Assembly: GCA_964581815.1 (NCBI GenBank)
Contig: CAZORE010000010.1
Span: 34,385 to 98,384 of the forward strand
Length of the DNA stretch: 64,000 nucleotides
Direction: 5' to 3'
Source of the DNA: an uncultured Streptosporangiaceae bacterium
GTDB taxonomy: Bacteria > Actinomycetota > Actinomycetes > Streptosporangiales > Streptosporangiaceae
The notes beneath the pieces are model-generated. The model was not told where the DNA came from and made no database searches. It worked only from the letters and a program-made list of their open reading frames with translations. Position numbers and translations under genes: made by a program. Below, one piece after another: positions 54,315-64,000 of this stretch; within the stretch, counting starts at the first letter, position 1, and every line of letters begins with the position of its first letter.

Positions 54315-54337
54315 CAGATCCGTACCAACCCCAACCC

Positions 54338-54382
54338 CTCGCGCCAGCCGTGGCAAAGTCGCCGCGGCTGGCGCGAGTCTTT
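54338..54382. terminator. Terminator hairpin between the MFS and GH114 genes
   Basis: CTCGCGCCAGCCGTGGC-AAAGTC-GCCGCGGCTGGCGCGAG followed by TCTTT. Confidence 0.7.
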
Positions 54383-54387
54383 TCCGG

Positions 54388-56145
54388 CTAGCCAGGGCAG
54401 GCATCGAAGGTGCGCCCGTCCAGGTCCGCGTCGAAGAGCACCGCGGTGAAGCCGTAGGACGGCGCGGACACGGACGTGCAGAAGGCGCCGAACTCACGGG
54501 CCGCCGGGGTGCAGGTGCGCCCGGGAGCGCACACGTAGTCGTCGTCGGTGTACTCGGCCTCGCCCACCCACTTGCCGGTCGGCTGCTGGCTGGTCACGTC
54601 CGTGGTGAAGTCGTCCCAGCCGCACGGGGTGCCGCCGTGCAGGCTGGTGCAGGTGATCCCGTACTGGCTGTGGCCAGCGAGCTGCGCGGCGGTACATGCC
54701 TTCGACAGGTAGCACTCCTCCACCACCGCGCCGTCGGCGTACTCGCGTCCCCATGAGGACAGGTAGGGCGAGTTCTTCCACAGCCCGGTCATCCCGTACT
54801 CGTGGATCAGGTTGAAGGCGTACGCGAGGTAGTTCTGCACGTCGCCGGGTGTCAGGTCGAAGCCGGTGGTGGACGGCGGGTCGAACCCGTCGATGTCGTC
54901 GAGTTCGACCGCGTCGAACCCCTTGGCCGCGCACATGCCGATCCGCTCTTGCAGCATGGGCTTGAGCGCGTCGAGCTGCCGGAAGTCGACCCAGCGCTCC
55001 GCCGGGAAACCGAAGTAGACATCGCCGAGCGCCGACGCGGGGAAGTAGGGGCCAGGGCTCGCGTCGGGCCGGTAGTTCTCCCAGGCCAGGTCCAGGTAGC
55101 AGACGGTCCGCGGGTGCGGCAGGGTGGCCGCCTGCCAGCCGGTCTCGATCGTGGTGACCTCGGACTCGGTGGTGAGGAAGCCGTCGACGTCGTAGATGTC
55201 GACGGCCGCCGCGCCGGTGCGCTGCAGCGGCGTCACCCGGCCGATCTGCCAGTCCCAGCGCATGGGCCGGCCCTTGCTGTCCAGGTGCGGCGGGTACCAG
55301 CAGCCATCGTCCCGCCAGCTGCGGCACGCCACCGGCGCCGGCATGGGAATCACGCGCCAGGAATAACGGAGGGTGGTTACCCCGGCCCGGTTCGCTGCGC
55401 GCACCTGCACCAGATGCGGGCCCACCGCGAGCTGGCCGGTGTAGAGCACCCGACTGGACGGCATGGCCTGCCAGCTGCCGTGGTCGGTCCGGTAGGTCAG
55501 CGTGACCGGCCCGTCCGCGCTGTTCGCGTGCGGGGCGGCGACCTGGAAGTACTCCTCCGTCGAGGAAGTCTGCCGTTCCGGCGTCCCGTTGACGAACGCG
55601 GTCGCCGGCGCCTCGCCGCGCGGGTAGACGTGCACGGCCGTGGTCGAGGTCACGGTCACCGAGCGCGTGACGGTGGTGAAGTCGTCGGACGGCCCGTTCG
55701 ACGGGACCGCCACCTCGGTCGCGGTCTCCGTGACCCGCAGCACCCGCCCGGTGTCCGCGTGACCGGCGACGTAGTCGTGCGCGGCGTAGGGCGTCGCGGT
55801 CGAGTCAGCCGCGGTCCGGCACTGTTTCCCGCCCGGCGCGCAGCTCTGCCAGGTGTACCCGACCGCGAAGCTGACTAGCTTCAGCCCGCGCGGCAGCGCC
55901 GGGGCCCGCCAGGCAAGTCCGGACGCCGTGACCGTCGCGCCGTCGCGAAACGGCCCGGTGATCCGCAGCGTTCCCCGGTGCACGGGAGCCGGGATACTCA
56001 CGGCCGGGCTGGCCGCGGCGGCCCCGGCCGTCGCGGGAGCGGCCAGCGCCGCCGGGGCGAGAACCCCGGCGACCAGCAGCAGGCAAGGTGCCACCGTGGC
56101 GGCGGCCAGCGCCGCACGCGCCGGCCGGGTCAGAATCCGGGTCAT
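54388..56145 (-). CDS. Secreted GH114-like endo-alpha-1,4-polygalactosaminidase with N-terminal Ig-like domains
   Basis: Signal peptide; WDWQI, DIYDVDGF, TVCYL..AWENYRPD, ERWVDFR, CAAKGFDAVELDDIDG, AVVEEC. Confidence 0.78.
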   Translation of the reverse strand: MTRILTRPARAALAAATVAPCLLLVAGVLAPAALAAPATAGAAAASPAVSIPAPVHRGTLRITGPFRDGATVTASGLAWRAPALPRGLKLVSFAVGYTWQSCAPGGKQCRTAADSTATPYAAHDYVAGHADTGRVLRVTETATEVAVPSNGPSDDFTTVTRSVTVTSTTAVHVYPRGEAPATAFVNGTPERQTSSTEEYFQVAAPHANSADGPVTLTYRTDHGSWQAMPSSRVLYTGQLAVGPHLVQVRAANRAGVTTLRYSWRVIPMPAPVACRSWRDDGCWYPPHLDSKGRPMRWDWQIGRVTPLQRTGAAAVDIYDVDGFLTTESEVTTIETGWQAATLPHPRTVCYLDLAWENYRPDASPGPYFPASALGDVYFGFPAERWVDFRQLDALKPMLQERIGMCAAKGFDAVELDDIDGFDPPSTTGFDLTPGDVQNYLAYAFNLIHEYGMTGLWKNSPYLSSWGREYADGAVVEECYLSKACTAAQLAGHSQYGITCTSLHGGTPCGWDDFTTDVTSQQPTGKWVGEAEYTDDDYVCAPGRTCTPAAREFGAFCTSVSAPSYGFTAVLFDADLDGRTFDACPG

Positions 56146-56167
56146 GCGGGGCCTCCCTAAGGCCGGG

Positions 56168-57478
56168 TTATGGCATTGCGTCGCGCAGCGCCGCCGGCAG
56201 CAGGTGGCGGTGGGCGTCGAGCAGCTCGTCGCACATCGCGACCGTCTGCGCGGTGGTGAGGGTGGCGGCCGTGTTCGGGTCGAGCAGCGCCGCCTGGTAG
56301 ACGTGATCGCGCGACCCGTCGAGCGCGGCGCGCACGGTCAGCTCCACCACGTTGAGGAAGGTCCGGTTGAGCGCGGCCAGCTGCGGCGGCAGCGCGCCGA
56401 CGGCCACTGGCTTGGGCCCGCCCGCGCCGATCAGGCACGGCACCTCGACGCAGCACTCGTCGGGCAGGCTGGAGATCAGGCCGCCGTTGCGGATGTTCAC
56501 GTGCAGCTCGCGCTCGGTCCCGGTCTCAAGCGAGTGGATGAACTGCGAGGCGAGCTCGTTCTCGAGCGTAAGCTCAAGCGGCTCGTCCGTCGCTAGCTGC
56601 CGTTCCAGCGACTCAAGCTCGCGCAGGTTCTCCTCGGACCGCTCCAGGTAGTCGCCCACGAAGATGCGGAACCGCTCGATCTGGTCGTCATGGTGCATGA
56701 ACCACGGCACGTACTCCGCGGAGTGCTCGCTCGACTCGGTGGGGAAGTAGCCGAACCGGCGGTAGATCTCGACCCGTACCCGCCGCTGCAGCTCGGGCGA
56801 GGACTCGATGACCTCGGCGAGCCGCGGGTACAGCGACTCGCCGTCCTGCTCGAAGCGCAGCACGAACGCCTGGTGGTTGAATCCCGCGGTGGTGAAGCGC
56901 ACCCGCTCCGGGTCGGCGCCCACGAGCTGCGTGAGGAAGGCCTGGGTGTCGCGGACCGAGTGGCACAGGCCGTACACCCGCTCGAACCCCGCACCCTCAT
57001 AGGCGGCCCAGGGGAGCATCGCCATCGGGTTGCTGTAGCTGAGCAGGTAGGCGTCCGGGCATACCTCGTTCATGTCCCGCGCCAGGTCGACCACGACGGG
57101 GATGGTGCGCAGGCCGCGGAAGATGCCGCCGATGCCGAGGGTGTCGCCGATCGTCTGGCGCAGTCCGTACCTGGCGGGAATGTCGAAGTCGGCGCGGGTG
57201 GCCGTGTACCCGCCGACCTGCACCTCGTTGATCACGTAGGTGGCGCCCGCGAGCGCGGTGCGGCGGTCCCTGGTCGTGGTCACCGTGGCCTGCGCGCCGG
57301 TCTGCGCGGAGATCCTGCGCACCAGCCGCTCCGCGTGCGCCAGCCGCTCGGCGCTGATGTCGTAGAGCACGAAGTGCAGCCCGCCGCGGAACTCCGGGTA
57401 ACTGCACAGGTCAGTGGTCACGTTACGGGTGAACTCAACGCTTCCAGCACCAATGAAGGCCAGTTTAATCACGCTCAT
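56168..57478 (-). CDS. GH4 NAD+/Mn2+-dependent glycosidase (alpha-galactosidase-like)
   Basis: IGAGSVEF, QTIGDTLGIGGIFRGLRT, YSNPMA, GLCHSV, AGFNHQAF, TESSEH, CCVEVPC. Confidence 0.9.
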   Translation of the reverse strand: MSVIKLAFIGAGSVEFTRNVTTDLCSYPEFRGGLHFVLYDISAERLAHAERLVRRISAQTGAQATVTTTRDRRTALAGATYVINEVQVGGYTATRADFDIPARYGLRQTIGDTLGIGGIFRGLRTIPVVVDLARDMNEVCPDAYLLSYSNPMAMLPWAAYEGAGFERVYGLCHSVRDTQAFLTQLVGADPERVRFTTAGFNHQAFVLRFEQDGESLYPRLAEVIESSPELQRRVRVEIYRRFGYFPTESSEHSAEYVPWFMHHDDQIERFRIFVGDYLERSEENLRELESLERQLATDEPLELTLENELASQFIHSLETGTERELHVNIRNGGLISSLPDECCVEVPCLIGAGGPKPVAVGALPPQLAALNRTFLNVVELTVRAALDGSRDHVYQAALLDPNTAATLTTAQTVAMCDELLDAHRHLLPAALRDAMP

Positions 57479-57500
57479 TAGTGTTCCATGGCGACTAGTT

Positions 57501-57522
57501 TCTTGCAAGATCTTGCATCTTG
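57501..57522. promoter_or_regulatory. Operator-like palindrome TGCAAGATCTTGCA with tandem TCTTG(CA) repeats
   Basis: Perfect 14-bp palindrome 57504-57517 overlapping TCTTGCAAGA (57501-57510), between the divergent GH4 and ABC genes. Confidence 0.6.
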
Positions 57523-57589
57523 TCCCGGTTTGCCTGCACAATGCTGCTCAATTGGTGAGCGGTGAGTGCATCTTCGAGCGGAGTGCGAC

Positions 57590-58912
57590 ATGACCAGCGC
57601 AAGGAAAAGGCGTGGAGCCCTGGCAGGGCTCGCCGCGCTCACGGCGACGGCCCTGGCAGTCGCGGGCTGCGGTACGGACGCCAACGGCGGCGGGTCGTCG
57701 TCGGCGTCGGGATCCTCGTCAAGCACAATTCAGATCTGGGAGGGCTGGACCGGCCAGGAGGCCAAGACGTTCGCCAAGCTGGTCTCCCAGTACGAGGCGC
57801 AGCACCCAGGGCAGAAGGTGCAGTCGCTCTACGTCAACAACGACGACACGCTGCAGAAGGTGCTGACCGCGGTGAAGGGCGGCAGCCCGCCCGACATCGC
57901 CTACCTCTACGGCTCCTGGGCGCCCAACGTCGCGCAGATCCCCCAGGTCGTCGACCTGACCAAGGTGGTGCAGCAGGCCGGGGTCAACTGGAGCGACTTC
58001 TTCACCGGCGAGCGGGACGTGGCCACCGTCAACGGCAAGGTGATCGGCATCCCGGCGCTGGTGGACAACCTGGCCGTGGTCTACAACAAGAAGCTGTTCG
58101 CCCAGGCCGGCCTGCCGGTGCCCACCGCGAACTGGACCTGGCAGGACTTCGTCACCGACGCGCAGAAGCTGACCAACGCGACGGCCAAGCAGTACGGCAC
58201 CGTCTACGTCACCCCCGGCACCGAGGACACGGTCTGGCACTGGGAGGCGCTCCTCTGGGAGGCCGGCGGCAGCCTGCTGACGGCCGACAACAAGCAGGCG
58301 GCGTTCAACTCCGCGGCCGGGCTTGAGTCGCTCAACACGCTGCGGACCATGGCCGTCACTAACAAGTCGATGTACTTCGACCCGACCGACGAGGCCTACA
58401 CCAACCTGTTCAACTCGGGCAAGATCGGCATGCTGGTCACCGGGCCGTGGGACCTGTCCGCGTTCCCCGACGTGGACTACGGCGTGCAGGTCATGCCGTC
58501 TTACTCAGGCAGCAGCGCCGGGCACCAGACCATCTCCGGGCCGGACAACTGGGTCGTGTTCAACAACGGCAGCAGCCAGGTCAGCGCGGCGGAGCAGTTC
58601 CTGCTCTGGCTCACCGCGCCGGCCCAGGTCAAGACCTGGTCGCTGCAGACCGGAGACCTGCCGACCAGGGCCTCGGTGGCCGACGCGTCCGGGTTCGGCG
58701 AGCAGATGAACTCGCAGTTGCCTGGGGTGAGCACGTTCGTCACCAACCTGAGCAACGTCAAGCAGGCTCGCCCGCAGATCACCCAGTACCCGGCGATCTC
58801 CACGATCCTCGGCAACATGGTGCTGTCCGTGCTGCTCGGCAAGTCGACCCCGCAGGCCGCCCTGGCGTCGGCGTCCACCCAGGTCAACCAGGCCCTGGCG
58901 TCGGGAAGCTGA
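57590..58912 (+). CDS. Sugar ABC transporter substrate-binding lipoprotein
   Basis: Lipobox LAVAGC; GGSPPDIA, YNKKLFAQAG, FNSGKIGMLVTGPW. Confidence 0.92.
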   Translation: MTSARKRRGALAGLAALTATALAVAGCGTDANGGGSSSASGSSSSTIQIWEGWTGQEAKTFAKLVSQYEAQHPGQKVQSLYVNNDDTLQKVLTAVKGGSPPDIAYLYGSWAPNVAQIPQVVDLTKVVQQAGVNWSDFFTGERDVATVNGKVIGIPALVDNLAVVYNKKLFAQAGLPVPTANWTWQDFVTDAQKLTNATAKQYGTVYVTPGTEDTVWHWEALLWEAGGSLLTADNKQAAFNSAAGLESLNTLRTMAVTNKSMYFDPTDEAYTNLFNSGKIGMLVTGPWDLSAFPDVDYGVQVMPSYSGSSAGHQTISGPDNWVVFNNGSSQVSAAEQFLLWLTAPAQVKTWSLQTGDLPTRASVADASGFGEQMNSQLPGVSTFVTNLSNVKQARPQITQYPAISTILGNMVLSVLLGKSTPQAALASASTQVNQALASGS

Positions 58913-58914
58913 GC

Positions 58915-59853
58915 ATGACCGCGAACACGGTGGCCCGGCCCGGCGCACGCCGGGCCGGGCGGGCCGGCCTGGTGCGCCGGGCGCTGGACTCCGAGCAGTT
59001 CAACGGGTGGGCCTTCGTCACCCCGGGCGTGGCCGTCATCCTGCTGTTCGGCGCGGCGCCGATCGTCTGGTCGGCGGTGATGTCGTTCCAGAAGTCCTCG
59101 CTGTTCGGCTCGAGCGCGTTCGTCGGCCTGGCCAATTACCGCAAGATGGCGCACGATCCGGTCGTGGGCGAGGCGATACAGCACACGCTGATCTACACCG
59201 CGCTGTTCGTGCCGGGCACGATGATCGTCGGACTGTTCCTCGCCGTGGCGATGAACAGGAAGATCCGCGGCATCACGATCTACCGGACCGCCGCCTACGC
59301 GACGATGGCCATCTCGACCATCAGCGAGGCCATCGTCTTCATCTGGCTCTTCGACCCCTCCTACGGGATCGTCAACTACGCCTTCAGCGCCGTCGGGCTG
59401 CCGCAGCAGCAGTTCCTCAACTCGCCGTCCGAGGCGCTGTACGTGATCGTGGCGATGACCATCTGGGGCTGGACCGGCTTCGCCGTGGTGGTCTACCTGG
59501 CGGCGCTGCAGGGGGTGCCGCAGTCGCTGCTCGAGGCGGCGTCCATCGACGGCGCGGGACCGTGGCGGGCGTTCCGCCGGGTCACCCTGCCGCTGCTCAG
59601 CCCGGCCACGCTGTTCCTCGCGGTCTGGCTCACGATCAACGCGCTGCAGCTGTTCGACGAGGTCTACCTGAGCACCCAGGGCGGACCGCTCAACGCGACC
59701 ACCGTCCTCGTCTACTACCTCTACAACCAGGCCTTCGAGCAGTTCAACTTCGGCTACGCGTCCGCCATCGCGTACTTCCTGTTCCTCGTCATCATCGTGG
59801 TCACGGTCATCCAGTTCCGGGTGGGCCGTCGGTTCACGTACTACCGGTCATGA
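58915..59853 (+). CDS. Sugar ABC transporter permease
   Basis: FVGLANY; EAA motif LQGVPQSLLEAASIDGA...VTLPLL. Confidence 0.92.
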   Translation: MTANTVARPGARRAGRAGLVRRALDSEQFNGWAFVTPGVAVILLFGAAPIVWSAVMSFQKSSLFGSSAFVGLANYRKMAHDPVVGEAIQHTLIYTALFVPGTMIVGLFLAVAMNRKIRGITIYRTAAYATMAISTISEAIVFIWLFDPSYGIVNYAFSAVGLPQQQFLNSPSEALYVIVAMTIWGWTGFAVVVYLAALQGVPQSLLEAASIDGAGPWRAFRRVTLPLLSPATLFLAVWLTINALQLFDEVYLSTQGGPLNATTVLVYYLYNQAFEQFNFGYASAIAYFLFLVIIVVTVIQFRVGRRFTYYRS

Positions 59854-60767
59854 GCGCGACCTCCGCGCCCGCCCGCGGCGACCTGCGGCCGGGCGCCACC
59901 CACGGCAGCCCGGCGACCCGGCGGCGGCGGCGCCTGCCGTTCAGCCCGTGGCACCTAGTGCTCATCCCGGCCACGATCGCGCTCATCTTCCCGTTCGCCT
60001 GGCTGCTTATCACCTCGGTGGAGACGCCGTCGGAGACGCTGCACTTCCCGCCGATCCTCTTCCCGCACACGATCAGGCTCGCCAACTACTCCGACGCGCT
60101 GGCGACCGCGCCGTTCGTCCGCTTCCTGGCCAACAGCGCCGTGGTGGCGGTGGTGACGGTGCTGTGCAACCTGGTGCTGTGCACGCTGGCCGGGTACGCC
60201 TTCGCCCGGTTCCGGTTCCTCGGCCGTACCGCTCTGTTCGCGGTCATCATGGCCACGCTCATGGTGCCGTTCCAGGTGACGATGATCCCGCAGTTCATCA
60301 TCACGAAGTGGCTGGGCGTGCACGTGCTCGCCGCGGTCGGCATCAACCACATCGGCGCGCTCATCCTGCCTAACGCGGCCACCGCGTTCGGCATCTTCTT
60401 CCTGCGCCAGTTCTTCCGCACGCTGCCGATCGAGTACGAGGAATCCGCCCGGGTGGACGGGGCGAGCAGGCTCACGGTGCTCGTCCGGGTCGTGCTGCCG
60501 CTGGCCACCCCGCCGCTCGCCACGCTCGCCGCGCTGACGTTCCTCGATTCCTGGAACAACTTCCTGTGGCCGCTCATCGCCGTCACCTCGACCAACCAGA
60601 TGACGCTGCCGCTTGGCCTGGCCACTTTCCAGGGAGCGCACGCGACGGAATGGAACCTGCTGATGGCGGCCAACGTGATGAGCCTGGTGCCCATGCTGGC
60701 GGTCTTCTTCTTTGCGCAGCGCTACTTCATCAGGTCGGTCGCCGCTACCGGGCTCGCCGGGACGTGA
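59850..60767 (+). CDS. Sugar ABC transporter permease
   Basis: AGYAFARFRF; LPIEYEESARVDGAS; WNNFLWPL. Confidence 0.92.
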   Translation: MSATSAPARGDLRPGATHGSPATRRRRRLPFSPWHLVLIPATIALIFPFAWLLITSVETPSETLHFPPILFPHTIRLANYSDALATAPFVRFLANSAVVAVVTVLCNLVLCTLAGYAFARFRFLGRTALFAVIMATLMVPFQVTMIPQFIITKWLGVHVLAAVGINHIGALILPNAATAFGIFFLRQFFRTLPIEYEESARVDGASRLTVLVRVVLPLATPPLATLAALTFLDSWNNFLWPLIAVTSTNQMTLPLGLATFQGAHATEWNLLMAANVMSLVPMLAVFFFAQRYFIRSVAATGLAGT

Positions 60768-60846
60768 GCGTACTACGGCAGCGGAACGTACCCAGGAAAC
60801 GCGCATTCGAGTGGAGATCAATTCAGTGATGAGCAAGGAGGCCTCA

Positions 60847-61773
60847 GTGACGCAGGAGCAGGCAGTGGCGGGCGTTCGCACGGAGCGGGAGATCGCCTCG
60901 CAACCCGGCTGCTGGCGCCAGGCCGCCGGACTGGCGGCGGACGCGGCGGTAGTGCTGCCGGCGCCTGGTGAGCGGGTCGCGGTGGTCGGCTGCGGCACCT
61001 CGTGGTTCATCGCGCAGTCCTACGCGGCGGCCAGGGAGGAGTCAGGCCTGGGCGAAACCGACGCGTTCAGCGCCTCGGAGATGCCGCGCGGACGGCGCTA
61101 TGACCGCACGCTGTTCCTGTCCAGGTCGGGCACCACCACAGAAATTCTAGAAGCAGCGGAACGGGTTCGCGGTACCAGCCGCACCGTCGCAATCACCGCC
61201 GATGCGCGGACCCCGGTGGGAATGGTCGTGGACGACATGATCGAACTCGCCTTCGCCGACGAAGAGTCCGTGGTGCAGACCCGGTTCGCGACCACGGAAC
61301 TCGCCCTGCTCCGCGCACACCTGGGAGCTGACATCGAGCCGTCGGCACGGGCTGCGGAGCGGGTGCTCCTTGAGCCGGTCGCGCCGGAGCTGCTCGCCGC
61401 CCGCCAGTTCACCTTCCTCGGCACCGGCTGGACCTATGGCCTGGCAAACGAGGCGGCACTGAAGCTGCGTGAGTCGGCCGGCCTGTGGACCGAGTCCTAC
61501 CCCGCGATGGAGTACCGGCACGGCCCGGCCGCGGTGACCGGCAAGCACAGCGTCGTCTGGGTGCTCGGGCCGGCGCCCGCCGGGCTCGCCGACGACATCG
61601 CGCTGGCCGGCGGGCTCGCCTGGGTCGTCGATGAGGACCCGATGGCCGCGCTTGTCCGGGTGCACCTCCTCGCACTGGCCAAGGCGCGGGCGGCGGGCCT
61701 CGACCCCGACCAGCCGCGGAACCTGACCCGCTCGGTGATCCTCACGCCCGCGGGGCCGGGCCGGACATCATGA
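60847..61773 (+). CDS. SIS-domain sugar-phosphate isomerase/deaminase (AgaS-like)
   Basis: EIASQP, GCGTS, SRSGTTTE, SVVQTRF, EAALKLRE, EYRHGP, PRNLTRSV; AAGGAGG RBS. Confidence 0.82.
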   Translation: MTQEQAVAGVRTEREIASQPGCWRQAAGLAADAAVVLPAPGERVAVVGCGTSWFIAQSYAAAREESGLGETDAFSASEMPRGRRYDRTLFLSRSGTTTEILEAAERVRGTSRTVAITADARTPVGMVVDDMIELAFADEESVVQTRFATTELALLRAHLGADIEPSARAAERVLLEPVAPELLAARQFTFLGTGWTYGLANEAALKLRESAGLWTESYPAMEYRHGPAAVTGKHSVVWVLGPAPAGLADDIALAGGLAWVVDEDPMAALVRVHLLALAKARAAGLDPDQPRNLTRSVILTPAGPGRTS

Positions 61774-62759
61774 TCCTTGTCGTCTGCCTCAATCCGGCGC
61801 TCGACATCACCCACCAGGTGGAGCGCGTGGACTGGGCGGGGGTGAACCGGCCGTCTGTCGTCTATGACCGCCCCGGCGGCAAGGGCACGAACGTCGCGAG
61901 AACCCTGCACTCGTTCGGTATCGAGGTTCTGTTGACCGGCCTGGCCGGCGGAACCACCGGCAGCGCGGTGGGTGCGGGGCTGCGCCGGCTGGGGGTGCCC
62001 GCGGCCTTCGCGCCGGCCGGCGGGGAGACCCGGCGCACCTTCAGCGTGGTCGACGGCCGCGGGCGCGTCGCGCTGTTCAACGAGCCCGGTCCCCGGGTCG
62101 GGGACGTCGAGTTCAAGCGGTTCCTGGCCGATTACGACGCCGCCCTGGCCGGCGCCTCGGTCGTGGTGCTGTCCGGCAGCCTGCCGCCGGGTGTGCCGTC
62201 CGACGCCTACGCCGGGCTGATCGCGGCAGCCACCAGGGCTGGCGTCCCTGCGGTGCTCGACACGTCGGGCGAGGCGCTGCGCGCGGGCGTGGCCGCGGGT
62301 CCCGCCATCGTCAAGCCGAACCTCGACGAGCTCGCCGCGCTTACCGTGCGGTCGCTGCGCACCCCCGATGGCGGGATCGACCTGATCGCGGTGACCGCGG
62401 CCGCCTGCTCGCTGCGGACGGCGGGCGCGCAGGCGGTCGTCGTCTCCCTAGGGCCGGACGGCCTGCTTGCCGTGACCGGCGACGGCTGCTGGCAGGCGCG
62501 GCCGACGGCCGTGCTCGCGGGCAACGCTACCGGCGCGGGCGACGCGGCGACCGCCGCCCTGGCCCACGGCCTGCTGCTTGGCCGGCCGTGGCCGGAGCGT
62601 ATCGCGCACGCGGCCGCCCTCGGCGCCGCGGCCGTCGCCGCGCCGGTCGCGGGGGAGTTCAGCCACGCCGACTACGCGGCGGGCCTGGCCGCGGTGACGG
62701 CGACCGAGCTGACGGTGTTCAGGGACGCCGCGAGTGCTCAGCCGGAAGGGGGACGCTGA
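61770..62759 (+). CDS. PfkB-family hexose-phosphate kinase (1-phosphofructokinase / tagatose-6-phosphate kinase-like)
   Basis: LNPALD, GGKGTNVA, LSGSLP, VKPNLDEL, NATGAGDA. Confidence 0.9.
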   Translation: MILVVCLNPALDITHQVERVDWAGVNRPSVVYDRPGGKGTNVARTLHSFGIEVLLTGLAGGTTGSAVGAGLRRLGVPAAFAPAGGETRRTFSVVDGRGRVALFNEPGPRVGDVEFKRFLADYDAALAGASVVVLSGSLPPGVPSDAYAGLIAAATRAGVPAVLDTSGEALRAGVAAGPAIVKPNLDELAALTVRSLRTPDGGIDLIAVTAAACSLRTAGAQAVVVSLGPDGLLAVTGDGCWQARPTAVLAGNATGAGDAATAALAHGLLLGRPWPERIAHAAALGAAAVAAPVAGEFSHADYAAGLAAVTATELTVFRDAASAQPEGGR

Positions 62760-63700
62760 TGCCGCTTGCCGCGATGGACGACATCACCGGGCCCGCGCGG
62801 GACGCAGGGTCCGGGGTCGGCGCGTTCAACGTGATCGGCATCGAGCACGCGGAGGCGATCGTCGCGGGCGCCGAGGCTGCCGCCTTCCCGGTCGTGCTGC
62901 AGATTAGCGAGAACTGCGTGGCGTACCACCGCGGGCTCGCCCCGATCGCCGCGGCGTGCCTGGCCCTCGCGCGCGGCGCCGCGGTGCCGGTCGCCGTGCA
63001 CCTGGACCACGCCTCCGACGTGGCGCTCGTCGAGGCCGCGGCCGGGCTCGGGCTCGGCTCGGTCATGTTCGACGCGTCCAGGTTGCCCTACGCCGACAAC
63101 GTCCGCACGACGGCGGACGTCGCGGCGTCGTGCCACCGGCGCGGAGTCTGGGTCGAGGCGGAACTCGGTGAGATCGGCGGCAAGGACGGCGTGCACTCGC
63201 CGCTCGCCCGGACCGATCCCGGCGAGGCGGCCAGCTTCGTCGCGGCGACCGGGGTGGACGCGCTCGCGGTCGCGGTGGGCAGCTCGCACGCCATGGCGAC
63301 TCGCGACGCCGTGCTTGACCTCGGCCTCATCCGTCGGCTGCGCGCGGCGGTCAGCGTGCCGCTCGTGCTGCACGGCTCGTCCGGCGTCCCCGATGAGGAC
63401 CTGACCGCGGCGGTCCGCGCCGGGATGACCAAGGTCAACATCGCGACCCAGCTCAACAAGGTGTTCACTGGTGCCGTACGGCTCGCCTTGTCGGCCCAGC
63501 CGACGACGACCGATCCGCGGAGGTACGGTGCGGCGGGACGAGACGCGGTCGCGGCTGAGGTGGCGCGGCTGCTCCGCCTGCTCGGATCAGGACATAATTC
63601 ACCCAACGCGATGGAAGAGACCGCCGGCGTGCGCGAGCCGGCCGCGAACACGAGCGCGCGGGCAGGAGGCACTGGTGAGCCGCTATCGCCGGTGGAATGA
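62759..63700 (+). CDS. Class II fructose/tagatose-bisphosphate aldolase
   Basis: GAFNV, VHLDH, SVMFDAS, VEAELGEIGG, LAVAVGSSH, LVLHGSSG, KVNIAT. Confidence 0.9.
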   Translation: MPLAAMDDITGPARDAGSGVGAFNVIGIEHAEAIVAGAEAAAFPVVLQISENCVAYHRGLAPIAAACLALARGAAVPVAVHLDHASDVALVEAAAGLGLGSVMFDASRLPYADNVRTTADVAASCHRRGVWVEAELGEIGGKDGVHSPLARTDPGEAASFVAATGVDALAVAVGSSHAMATRDAVLDLGLIRRLRAAVSVPLVLHGSSGVPDEDLTAAVRAGMTKVNIATQLNKVFTGAVRLALSAQPTTTDPRRYGAAGRDAVAAEVARLLRLLGSGHNSPNAMEETAGVREPAANTSARAGGTGEPLSPVE

Positions 63701-64000
63701 CCTGCTGGAGCTGCTGGCAACGGCCGGACAACTCCAGGTGGAGGAGGCGGCGGCCGCGCTTAACGTCTCCCCGGCCACCGTCCGCAGGGACTTCGATGAG
63801 CTGGCCGCTCAGCAGATGCTCACCAGGATCCGGGGCGGCGCGGTCGCGCAGGGACTCAACTACGACCTGCCGCTGCGCTACAAGTCGGAGCGGCACCCGT
63901 CGGAGAAGCAGCGCATCGGGGCGCTGGCCGCCAGCATGGTGCTGGCCGGCCAGGCGGTCGGGCTGAACGGCGGCACCACCACCACCGAGGTGGCCCGGGC
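63675..64000 (+). CDS. DeoR/GlpR-family regulator (AgaR-like), runs off the window
   Basis: From GTG 63675 (AGGAGG RBS): MSRYRRWNDLLELL...LNVSPATVRRDFDEL...TRIRGGAV...EKQRIG...LNGGTTTTEVAR. Confidence 0.9.
   Translation, partial: MSRYRRWNDLLELLATAGQLQVEEAAAALNVSPATVRRDFDELAAQQMLTRIRGGAVAQGLNYDLPLRYKSERHPSEKQRIGALAASMVLAGQAVGLNGGTTTTEVAR

Follow-up and report, generated by a model that had tools for sequence, protein, structure and literature searches.

The window analysed here, a 64,000-nucleotide (nt) stretch of contig CAZORE010000010.1 (C10; positions 34,385 to 98,384), belongs to a soil actinomycete of the genus Trebonia whose 8.2-Mb genome is 98% complete. Across its right-hand end runs a locus of ten genes, in which a two-gene minus-strand operon encoding members of glycoside hydrolase families 4 and 114 (GH4-GH114) diverges from an eight-gene plus-strand operon for, in order, a sugar-binding lipoprotein, two permeases, a double-SIS phosphosugar enzyme, a first PfkB-type kinase (PfkB1), a class II aldolase, a DeoR-family regulator and a second kinase (PfkB2). 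An original prediction, made from the letters of the DNA, proposed that the locus serves the use of polygalactosamine, and this proposal gains in silico support from gene co-occurrence, from the kinase found downstream, from the galactose type of the GH4 and from a back end resembling the aga pathway. We consider it fairly probable that the locus serves to catabolise alpha-1,4-linked galactosamine (GalN) oligomers derived from cationic exopolymers such as fungal galactosaminogalactan (GAG) or polygalactosamine, or bacterial Pel.

Organization of the locus

The GH114 gene (54388..56145, minus strand) encodes a secreted protein of 585 amino acids (aa) with a PF03537 match, a signal peptide and an Ega3-like fold. 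It carries its own GGGAGG ribosome-binding site and starts 22 nt after the stop codon of the GH4 gene (56168..57478, minus strand), whose product is a cytoplasmic, MelA-like enzyme of 436 aa and of the NAD+/Mn2+ type (PF02056, PF11975, PRK15076). Beyond a divergent control region of 111 nt (57479..57589), the plus-strand operon opens with a CUT1-type sugar-binding lipoprotein (57590..58912; PF13416, PF01547; lipobox LAVAGC) and the two permeases of an ATP-binding cassette (ABC) importer (58915..59853 and 59850..60767; both PF00528), the ATG of the second overlapping the stop codon of the first. These are followed on the same strand by the double-SIS enzyme of the GlmS-C/GlmD/AgaS superfamily (60829..61773; PF01380), by PfkB1, a kinase of the 1-PFK/LacC/Pfk-2 subfamily (61770..62759; TIGR03168), by the class II ketose-bisphosphate aldolase (62759..63700; PF01116) and by the DeoR-family regulator (HTH_DeoR and DeoRC domains), which occupies 63675..64000 in the window and reaches window-equivalent position 64460 in full. 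The arrangement first described, with GH114 directly downstream of GH4 and both divergent from ABC, SIS, PfkB, aldolase and DeoR genes, is present in its entirety. A sugar kinase, which had been noted as not in the window, lies just past the window end: PfkB2 is a ribokinase-like sugar kinase (window-equivalent 64447-65403, plus strand; L001 10832-11788; PfkB 168.6 bits) whose gene overlaps the end of that for DeoR. The suggestion to look downstream for a kinase or a deacetylase was thus borne out for the kinase; no deacetylase is encoded in the locus. The ABC ATPase, likewise noted as not in the window, is indeed absent from the locus, and several MalK-like genes are found elsewhere in the genome.

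The eight plus-strand genes abut or overlap and are translationally coupled, and the gene spacing supports two operons. Between GH114 and a convergent gene of the major facilitator superfamily (MFS), a hairpin with a 17-bp stem (54338..54377) is a probable bidirectional terminator at the end of the GH4-GH114 operon. A search of the genome at E 1e-15 gives no paralogue for GH114, GH4, the SIS enzyme, PfkB1 or PfkB2 and only distant ones for the aldolase, of which there is no second close copy, and for DeoR. Past the window end (L001 11852-15771), genes for a methyltransferase with an Rv2258c-like winged helix, a rhodanese protein and a BTAD-domain regulator run convergent to the locus, to which they seem unrelated.

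At 57510-57523, in the spacer between the two operons, lies TGCAAGATCTTGCA, a perfect palindrome of 14 nt that on its sequence is a candidate operator for DeoR. The exact site occurs once in the genome; a copy with one mismatch lies on contig C188, with no informative gene nearby. When one mismatch is allowed, TGCAAnnnnTTGC[AG] is found in the same spacer of 22 of 56 related loci, where the half-sites are kept and the centre varies, and the palindrome was not found in 20 other loci from other families or of variant types.

The secreted GH114 enzyme

With 117.5 bits against PF03537 (cut-off 27), GH114 belongs to that family; its score is the lowest among the PF03537 matches listed for the class sample described below, and the protein is therefore a divergent member. 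Since the control genome of T. maritima also matches PF03537, the model covers GH191 as well. A GH191 identity for the window protein was ruled out by sequence matches and fold scores favouring Ega3. In a sequence search of solved structures only Ega3 and FsGH114 match, Ega3 being the best, and in a fold comparison of the structure model Ega3 (6oj1) comes out on top with a TM score of 0.80, ahead of FsGH114 and GH191 enzymes (0.61-0.64) and of PelA (0.55). By sequence and fold together, the protein is nearer to GH114 structures than to those of GH191, GH166 or GH135.

Two beta-sandwich domains that resemble tandem FN3 modules precede the catalytic domain (residues ~55-265, in a high-confidence model), and the (beta/alpha)8 domain itself spans residues ~296-576 of the model. 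D416 and E476 align with the catalytic D189 (the Asp nucleophile) and E247 (the Glu acid/base) of Ega3 (PMC12054363), the Ega3 numbering being based on an assumed offset of 41 between chain index and residue number. Both lie within a set of nine invariant acidic residues kept across 35 sequences down to 25% identity; such a set fits an acidic cleft that would bind a cationic substrate. The lid tryptophan of Ega3 is replaced by another aromatic residue. From sequence and model, GH114 is predicted to be an endo-alpha-1,4-polygalactosaminidase. GH114 enzymes are known only as galactosaminidases, for GalN-rich polymers, and the bacterial ones have so far been resistant to soluble expression (PMC12054363). 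The family has been counted among the fungal-cell-wall-degrading enzymes of Actinobacteria, with no pairing with GH4 (PMC7922503).

The GH4 enzyme and the importer

GH4 scores 179.6 bits with PF02056 and 185.2 bits with PF11975, and its identity to E. coli MelA is 40%. Its motifs FIGAGS, SNPMAM, GLCHSV and AGFNH align with the same motifs of MelA, which we take, from GH4 structures, to comprise the NAD+-binding GxGS and the Cys and His metal ligands; no MelA-type GH4 is present among the solved structures. The enzyme is predicted to be an exo-alpha-galactosaminidase and/or an alpha-galactosidase acting on imported oligomers, and the gene context argues for GalN oligomers as its substrate over melibiose or raffinose. 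A tree of GH4 proteins gathers all 21 sampled sequences from actinobacteria, nearly all of which come from SIS- or GH114-linked loci, into a single clade that divides into two subclades; the window GH4 falls in this clade.

Adjacent GH4 paralogues from both subclades were observed in G198 (L106 14980-18400) and in Nonomuraea gerenzanensis (L186 12001-15357). Such pairs may be complementary in specificity, for example for the GalN and galactose (Gal) residues of GAG. The second GH4 of the window's own genome (G000 contig C81:3386-12961, L191) is 32% identical to the first and lies in a locus where a ROK regulator diverges from genes for an Opp/Dpp-type substrate-binding protein (SBP), two permeases, two ATPases, the GH4 and a BadF-type sugar kinase, a layout that resembles the csnR-K-type clusters for chitosan/chitobiose oligomers.

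For the binding lipoprotein, the nearest solved relative is 7bvt, whose title names a cyclic alpha-maltosyl-maltose binding protein (a cyclic alpha-glucan tetrasaccharide). We rejected this relative as a guide to the ligand, as its cyclic alpha-glucan says nothing about GalN.

The phosphosugar enzymes

Aligned along its entire length, the SIS protein shows ~30% identity to its counterparts in AgaZ-containing rhizobial clusters, and these counterparts are in turn ~28% identical to E. coli AgaS; a direct comparison with E. coli AgaS gives 33% identity over only 57 residues. A search for homologues returned only metagenome proteins, unnamed or automatically named. We predict that it is a galactosamine-6-phosphate deaminase/isomerase. 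NagS, the N-acetylglucosamine-6-phosphate dehydratase of Streptomyces, was considered as an identity and ruled out: NagS is a single-SIS, MurQ-related protein that adjoins dmdR1 and for which orthologues were found only in Streptomycetaceae, while the window protein is double-SIS and occurs in 106 of the 401 class genomes.

PfkB1 scores 270.8 bits against TIGR03168 (cut-off 216) and is predicted to be a tagatose-6-phosphate kinase. The aldolase (275 bits against PF01116) is 36% identical to E. coli KbaY, stays below the cut-offs of the tagatose-bisphosphate aldolase models GatY (219 bits, cut-off 383) and KbaY (169 bits, cut-off 542) as well as below those of the fructose-bisphosphate aldolase models, and must be classed as a generic class II ketose-bisphosphate aldolase; a role as tagatose-1,6-bisphosphate aldolase is predicted. 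The best solved relative of PfkB2 is YdjH, and for this kinase we predict activity on galactosamine.

Linkage of GH114, GH4 and the catabolic genes

Within the genus, a GH4 orthologue of at least 87% identity occurs in 14 of 44 species genomes, and in all 13 with fetched flanks the orthologous transporter comes next, followed by the downstream genes where the contig allows. Seven of these genomes, apart from the window's own, have GH114 between MFS and GH4, and a further fragment of it lies at a contig end. Locus retrieval with GH114 is what assigns the window's genome to Trebonia; Trebonia kvetii 15TR583, a type strain, carries the same locus at 83-97% protein identity. Across Trebonia species, the gene between MFS and GH4 is either there in full or cleanly missing (window 54315-56167), through insertion or deletion; in G003 (L016 9575-9700) the MFS gene abuts GH4 directly, with 125 nt between them.

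A scan of the GH114 protein against 185,579 species genomes gave 258 relatives, and the large majority of the best 80 loci, which were fetched (59-83% identity), hold the whole gene set. Rearranged variants keep GH114 with GH4 and ABC genes. In seven variant loci a GH4 of only 37-39% identity stands directly in front of GH114, and the six of these with enough flank have the SBP, two permeases, GH4 and GH114 on one strand as a single operon; in four loci whose flanks extend for several kb to either side, GH114 stands alone. The single-operon variant (L100 11580-12464 and related loci) has neither SIS nor DeoR nearby. In this variant, an MmyB-like regulator is convergent to GH114, an aldo/keto reductase lies beyond the regulator, and a Zn-dependent dehydrogenase is encoded upstream of the transporter genes.

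For the class as a whole, one draw of 401 genomes was searched with PF03537, the SIS enzyme and GH4, and coordinates were compared by hand; these genomes are related and hence are not independent cases, and the tallies include three unpublished genomes (G085, G422, G036) on which no named case of co-localisation rests. PF03537 matches occur in 134 genomes, SIS orthologues in 106 and GH4 orthologues (at least 48% identity) in 37, the window's genome excluded. Within 10 kb of the GH4 orthologue lies an SIS orthologue in 28 of the 37 and a PF03537 gene in nine (G198, G273, G035, G132, G163, G185, G094, G171, G247), the latter from at least five families. Because only 16 of the 37 hold both genes, the number of adjacencies expected by chance is far below one, and the survey of GH4-GH114 co-occurrence that had been proposed as a check thus returned linkage far above chance, in several actinobacterial families and in different gene orders. 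In a tree of the GH114 catalytic domain the linked genes belong to no fewer than three distinct lineages, and the deepest split separates two of these from each other; the tree needs a minimum of five state changes, and members of all three lineages match Ega3 best. This distribution favours repeated recruitment, or long retention, of GH114 for function. In the locus, GH114 is an accessory and not a fixed part.

A rearranged copy was also seen on pSCAT of Streptantibioticus cattleyicolor NRRL 8057 (NC_016113.1, ~504.8-514.5 kb, L187), where SIS, aldolase and GH114 genes are divergent from those for the SBP, two permeases, PfkB2, GH4 and DeoR. pSCAT is the 1.8-Mb linear megaplasmid of a cultured type strain.

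Among twenty SIS neighbourhoods sampled, the aldolase is found near the SIS orthologue in 16, DeoR in 16 and PfkB1 in 10, and GH4 with PfkB2 in only three. Three of the neighbourhoods that lack GH4 were annotated by Pfam: two have a ROK kinase, one of these together with GH89, and the third has a NagA-type amidohydrolase, in company with PfkB1, the aldolase and DeoR. SIS-PfkB1-aldolase-DeoR is therefore a widespread actinobacterial module that takes different front ends, and the GH4-bearing front end has a PfkB kinase and no deacetylase. As in the aga pathway, the SIS enzyme is accompanied by a ketose-phosphate kinase, an aldolase and a DeoR regulator, and elsewhere by partners of the type used for N-acetylgalactosamine (GalNAc). 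In G444 (L171 3700-10451), an operon of SIS, ROK kinase, PfkB and aldolase genes continues, 60 nt beyond the aldolase, with a gene for a 1040-aa member of GH89 (the NAGLU-like alpha-N-acetylglucosaminidase family); either this GH89 acts on an alpha-GalNAc linkage or the module is not strictly galacto-specific.

Related clusters occur in Proteobacteria. On a plasmid of Pelagibacterium sp. H642 (L189 5905-16464), AgaZ is divergent from DeoR, a BadF-type kinase, SIS, GH4, an ATPase, an amidohydrolase, an SBP and two permeases, and pRL22b6 of Rhizobium leguminosarum (L193 9007-18719) carries GH4, DeoR, a BadF-type kinase, an SBP, two permeases, SIS, AgaZ and an ATPase. Both GH4s are 44-47% identical to the window's. 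As many as 214 Rhizobium plasmid records match the window GH4 at E 1e-60 or better, of which one context was inspected.

A proposed route for galactosamine polymers

The analysis shows directly which genes are present, how they are arranged in operons, to which families they belong, that catalytic residues are conserved and how the genes are linked across genomes. Each step of the route that we propose is inferred from family membership and gene context. Outside the cell, the secreted GH114 would cut deacetylated GalN stretches, and the CUT1 ABC importer with its anchored lipoprotein would take in the short oligomers, powered by an ATPase encoded elsewhere in the genome. In the cytoplasm, GH4 would free monomers by the NAD+/Mn2+ redox-elimination mechanism, and the ribokinase-like PfkB2 would convert them to GalN-6-phosphate. 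The double-SIS enzyme may then yield tagatose-6-phosphate and ammonia, PfkB1 would form tagatose-1,6-bisphosphate, and the class II aldolase would split this into dihydroxyacetone phosphate and glyceraldehyde-3-phosphate. DeoR presumably represses both divergent operons, perhaps at the palindrome in their shared spacer. GH4 is the weakest step, as no precedent for amino sugars was found described.

GH114, a galactose-type GH4, an SIS enzyme with kinase and aldolase, and the lack of a deacetylase together point to non-acetylated alpha-galactosamine as the substrate. An SIS protein of the amino-sugar-deaminase type that has its own kinase and aldolase argues for a ketose phosphate other than fructose-6-phosphate. 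PMC4694137, citing Leyn 2012, takes the absence of agaA to mean use of GalN but not of GalNAc, and by the same reasoning a locus that lacks a deacetylase would serve GalN and not GalNAc.

Several observations weigh against this proposal. GH4 passes the curated alpha-galactosidase subfamily model of NCBIfam, PRK15076, with 545.9 bits against a cut-off of 486. We know of no amino-sugar activity described for GH4, and a literature search found none either. The SIS protein, which the original prediction had called AgaS-like, keeps that likeness at the level of the double-SIS GlmS-C superfamily and loses it at the level of the AgaS family, where its TIGR02815 score is 36.5 bits (cut-off 529). Among solved structures, it comes closest to the GlcN-6-phosphate (GlcN, glucosamine) deaminases of archaea and Thermotoga (2dec, 2cb0, 1j5x). 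The kinase and aldolase models fail to separate tagatose from fructose substrates, and some rearranged loci have a MalK-type ATPase and lack PfkB1 and the aldolase. The link to GH114 is also incomplete. The gene is absent beside GH4 in five of 13 Trebonia species, and in three of these five genomes (72-91% complete) the GH114 query found no match anywhere. Among the 37 class genomes with GH4, a PF03537 gene lies elsewhere in seven more and is absent from 21, so that the core locus is independent of the cell's own GH114; carriers of the core without it may live on oligomers freed by other organisms or have a broader substrate. From the side of GH114, 55 of 60 sampled neighbourhoods contain none of the locus genes (five do), and all ten sampled GH114 genes of the Streptomyces-like family stand alone.

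Alternative explanations

It is possible, if unlikely, that the locus serves ordinary alpha-galactosides (melibiose, raffinose or galactinol), with a true alpha-galactosidase in GH4, a GH114 neighbour that has a separate job, and an SIS enzyme, kinase and aldolase that burn galactose or another moiety by a non-PTS (phosphotransferase system) tagatose-6-phosphate route. The match to PRK15076 and the identity to MelA speak for it, as do the many copies of the locus that lack GH114 and the GH4s of 45-47% identity in plain LacI-ABC loci of Deinococcus and Roseomonas. GH4s about as similar to the window's as the plasmid-borne ones also sit in plain LacI-ABC, agp and raffinose loci, so that GH4 sequence identity alone gives no specificity. 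The SIS protein, however, belongs to the superfamily of amino-sugar deaminases and to no known family of galactose-6-phosphate isomerases; chance is unlikely to have placed GH4 near GH114 in nine genomes out of 37, which come from at least five families, and near GH114 genes of three lineages; and GH114 is part of the GH4 operon here and of an operon with ABC genes in one variant locus.

A second possibility, which we regard as improbable, is that the locus handles some other glycoside with an alpha-linked hexosamine, for example one containing GlcN such as GlcN-inositol or trehalosamine, and that the SIS enzyme is a GlcN-6-phosphate deaminase like its best solved and NCBIfam relatives, GlmD and TM0813. 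Fructose-6-phosphate, the product of such an enzyme, needs no dedicated kinase or aldolase, yet the aldolase accompanies the SIS gene in most of the sampled loci (16/20). GH4 is moreover of a galactose-type subfamily, GH114 is known only for galactosaminidases (PMC12054363), and the related clusters of Proteobacteria include AgaZ, by annotation a subunit of tagatose-bisphosphate aldolase.

The same enzymology could instead be directed at the actinomycete's own polymer, by recycling or remodelling a GalN-containing exopolysaccharide or wall polymer, which seems to us more improbable still. Producers of GAG and Pel do use GH114, GH135 and GH166 enzymes to process these polymers during biosynthesis (PMC12054363), and the two N-terminal beta-sandwich domains of GH114 could anchor the enzyme at the cell surface. 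Against this, no polysaccharide synthase gene adjoins the locus and the linkage is to import and catabolic genes. No homologue of PelG was found in the 98%-complete genome, and processing of the cell's own Pel was rejected on this ground.

A fructosamine (Amadori) locus of the frl type, with the SIS enzyme as deglycase and PfkB2 as fructosamine kinase, is barely credible: close SIS homologues bear the automatic JGI name 'FrlB-like' and PfkB2 is 31% identical to FrlD, but the FrlB identity was ruled out by a comparison with E. coli FrlB that shows no detectable similarity (E = 1.2) and by the lack of an FrlB model match, the deglycase product glucose-6-phosphate needs neither kinase nor aldolase, and GH4 and GH114 would be left without a role.

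Implications

In the biofilms of Aspergillus and Pseudomonas, GAG and Pel are matrix polymers that confer adhesion and shield against the immune system, and work on the known galactosaminidases has treated them as aids to biosynthesis or as tools against biofilms. To our knowledge, the natural turnover of these polymers has not been described. If the catabolism of alpha-1,4-linked GalN oligomers is indeed the function of the locus, it would show which organisms consume such cationic polymers in soil and offer enzymes for their complete breakdown to monomers; it would also give bacterial GH114 enzymes a physiological context and GH4 an amino-sugar activity. Our literature search found no paper on this galactosamine-polymer route. 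With more hesitation, we suggest that GH4 could be the first exo-alpha-D-galactosaminidase and the locus the first end-to-end bacterial route for GAG, Pel or polygalactosamine; in that case, the NAD+/Mn2+ redox-elimination glycosidases of GH4 would extend to 2-amino sugars, a class of substrate new to these enzymes. The locus is widespread in soil actinomycetes, with a related GH4-containing version on rhizobial plasmids, and its two cultured carriers, T. kvetii 15TR583 and S. cattleyicolor NRRL 8057, make the reading testable.

Comparison with known systems

The locus combines elements of known kinds, namely the back end of the aga pathway, a csn-like front end and GH114. To E. coli MelA and the rhizobial agp-melA systems, its GH4 shows 40-41% identity, and the Rossmann GxGS, NPM, CH and NH motifs are common to MelA and the locus enzyme. 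It stands, however, in an actinobacterial clade separate from both, and in a context of amino-sugar catabolism and GH114, not of melibiose or raffinose genes. GH114 shares the fold, the Asp/Glu pair and an aromatic residue at the lid tip with Ega3 of Aspergillus fumigatus and with the endo-alpha-1,4-polygalactosaminidase of Pseudomonas sp. 881, also of GH114, at ~22-30% identity, and differs from them by 250 additional N-terminal residues and a Cys-rich C-terminal elaboration. Whereas the role of Ega3 is in GAG biosynthesis, the window gene sits with catabolic genes.

The csn system of Streptomyces and Kitasatospora, which comprises a secreted GH46 chitosanase and csnR-csnEFG-csnH-csnK, is similar in its logic, and in K. 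setae hydrolase genes flank the cluster (PMC5635096; bioRxiv 10.1101/2023.09.20.558697). Common to both systems are a secreted endo-hydrolase (predicted for the locus) for a cationic amino-sugar polymer, a dedicated sugar kinase, a CUT1 importer without an ATPase gene of its own, which in csn is powered by the shared MsiK, and a cytoplasmic GH4, which in csn (CsnH) is presumed to split amino-sugar oligomers. The locus is nevertheless no csnR-K cluster: although ABC genes and GH4 are present, its regulator is of the DeoR family and its kinase of the PfkB type, where csn uses ROK proteins for both, and the csn-type GH4 is a different paralogue. The csn polymer is beta-1,4-glucosamine, the product of which enters metabolism via NagB, and csn therefore needs no SIS-kinase-aldolase module.

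Such a module is what the locus has in common with the aga pathway for GalNAc and GalN (agaR, agaS, kbaY and kbaZ in E. coli, and the AgaK/AgaA/AgaS/AgaZ variant of Shewanella), the two sharing a DeoR-family regulator, a double-SIS step on an amino-sugar 6-phosphate, a ketose-6-phosphate kinase step and a class II aldolase. The SIS enzyme of the locus is far from E. coli AgaS, uptake relies on an ABC importer in place of a PTS or permease, and, unlike in aga, the free sugar would be phosphorylated by a ribokinase-like PfkB kinase. Above all, the locus adds GH114 and GH4 to the aga scheme, which implies that its input is an oligomer or polymer and not a monosaccharide.

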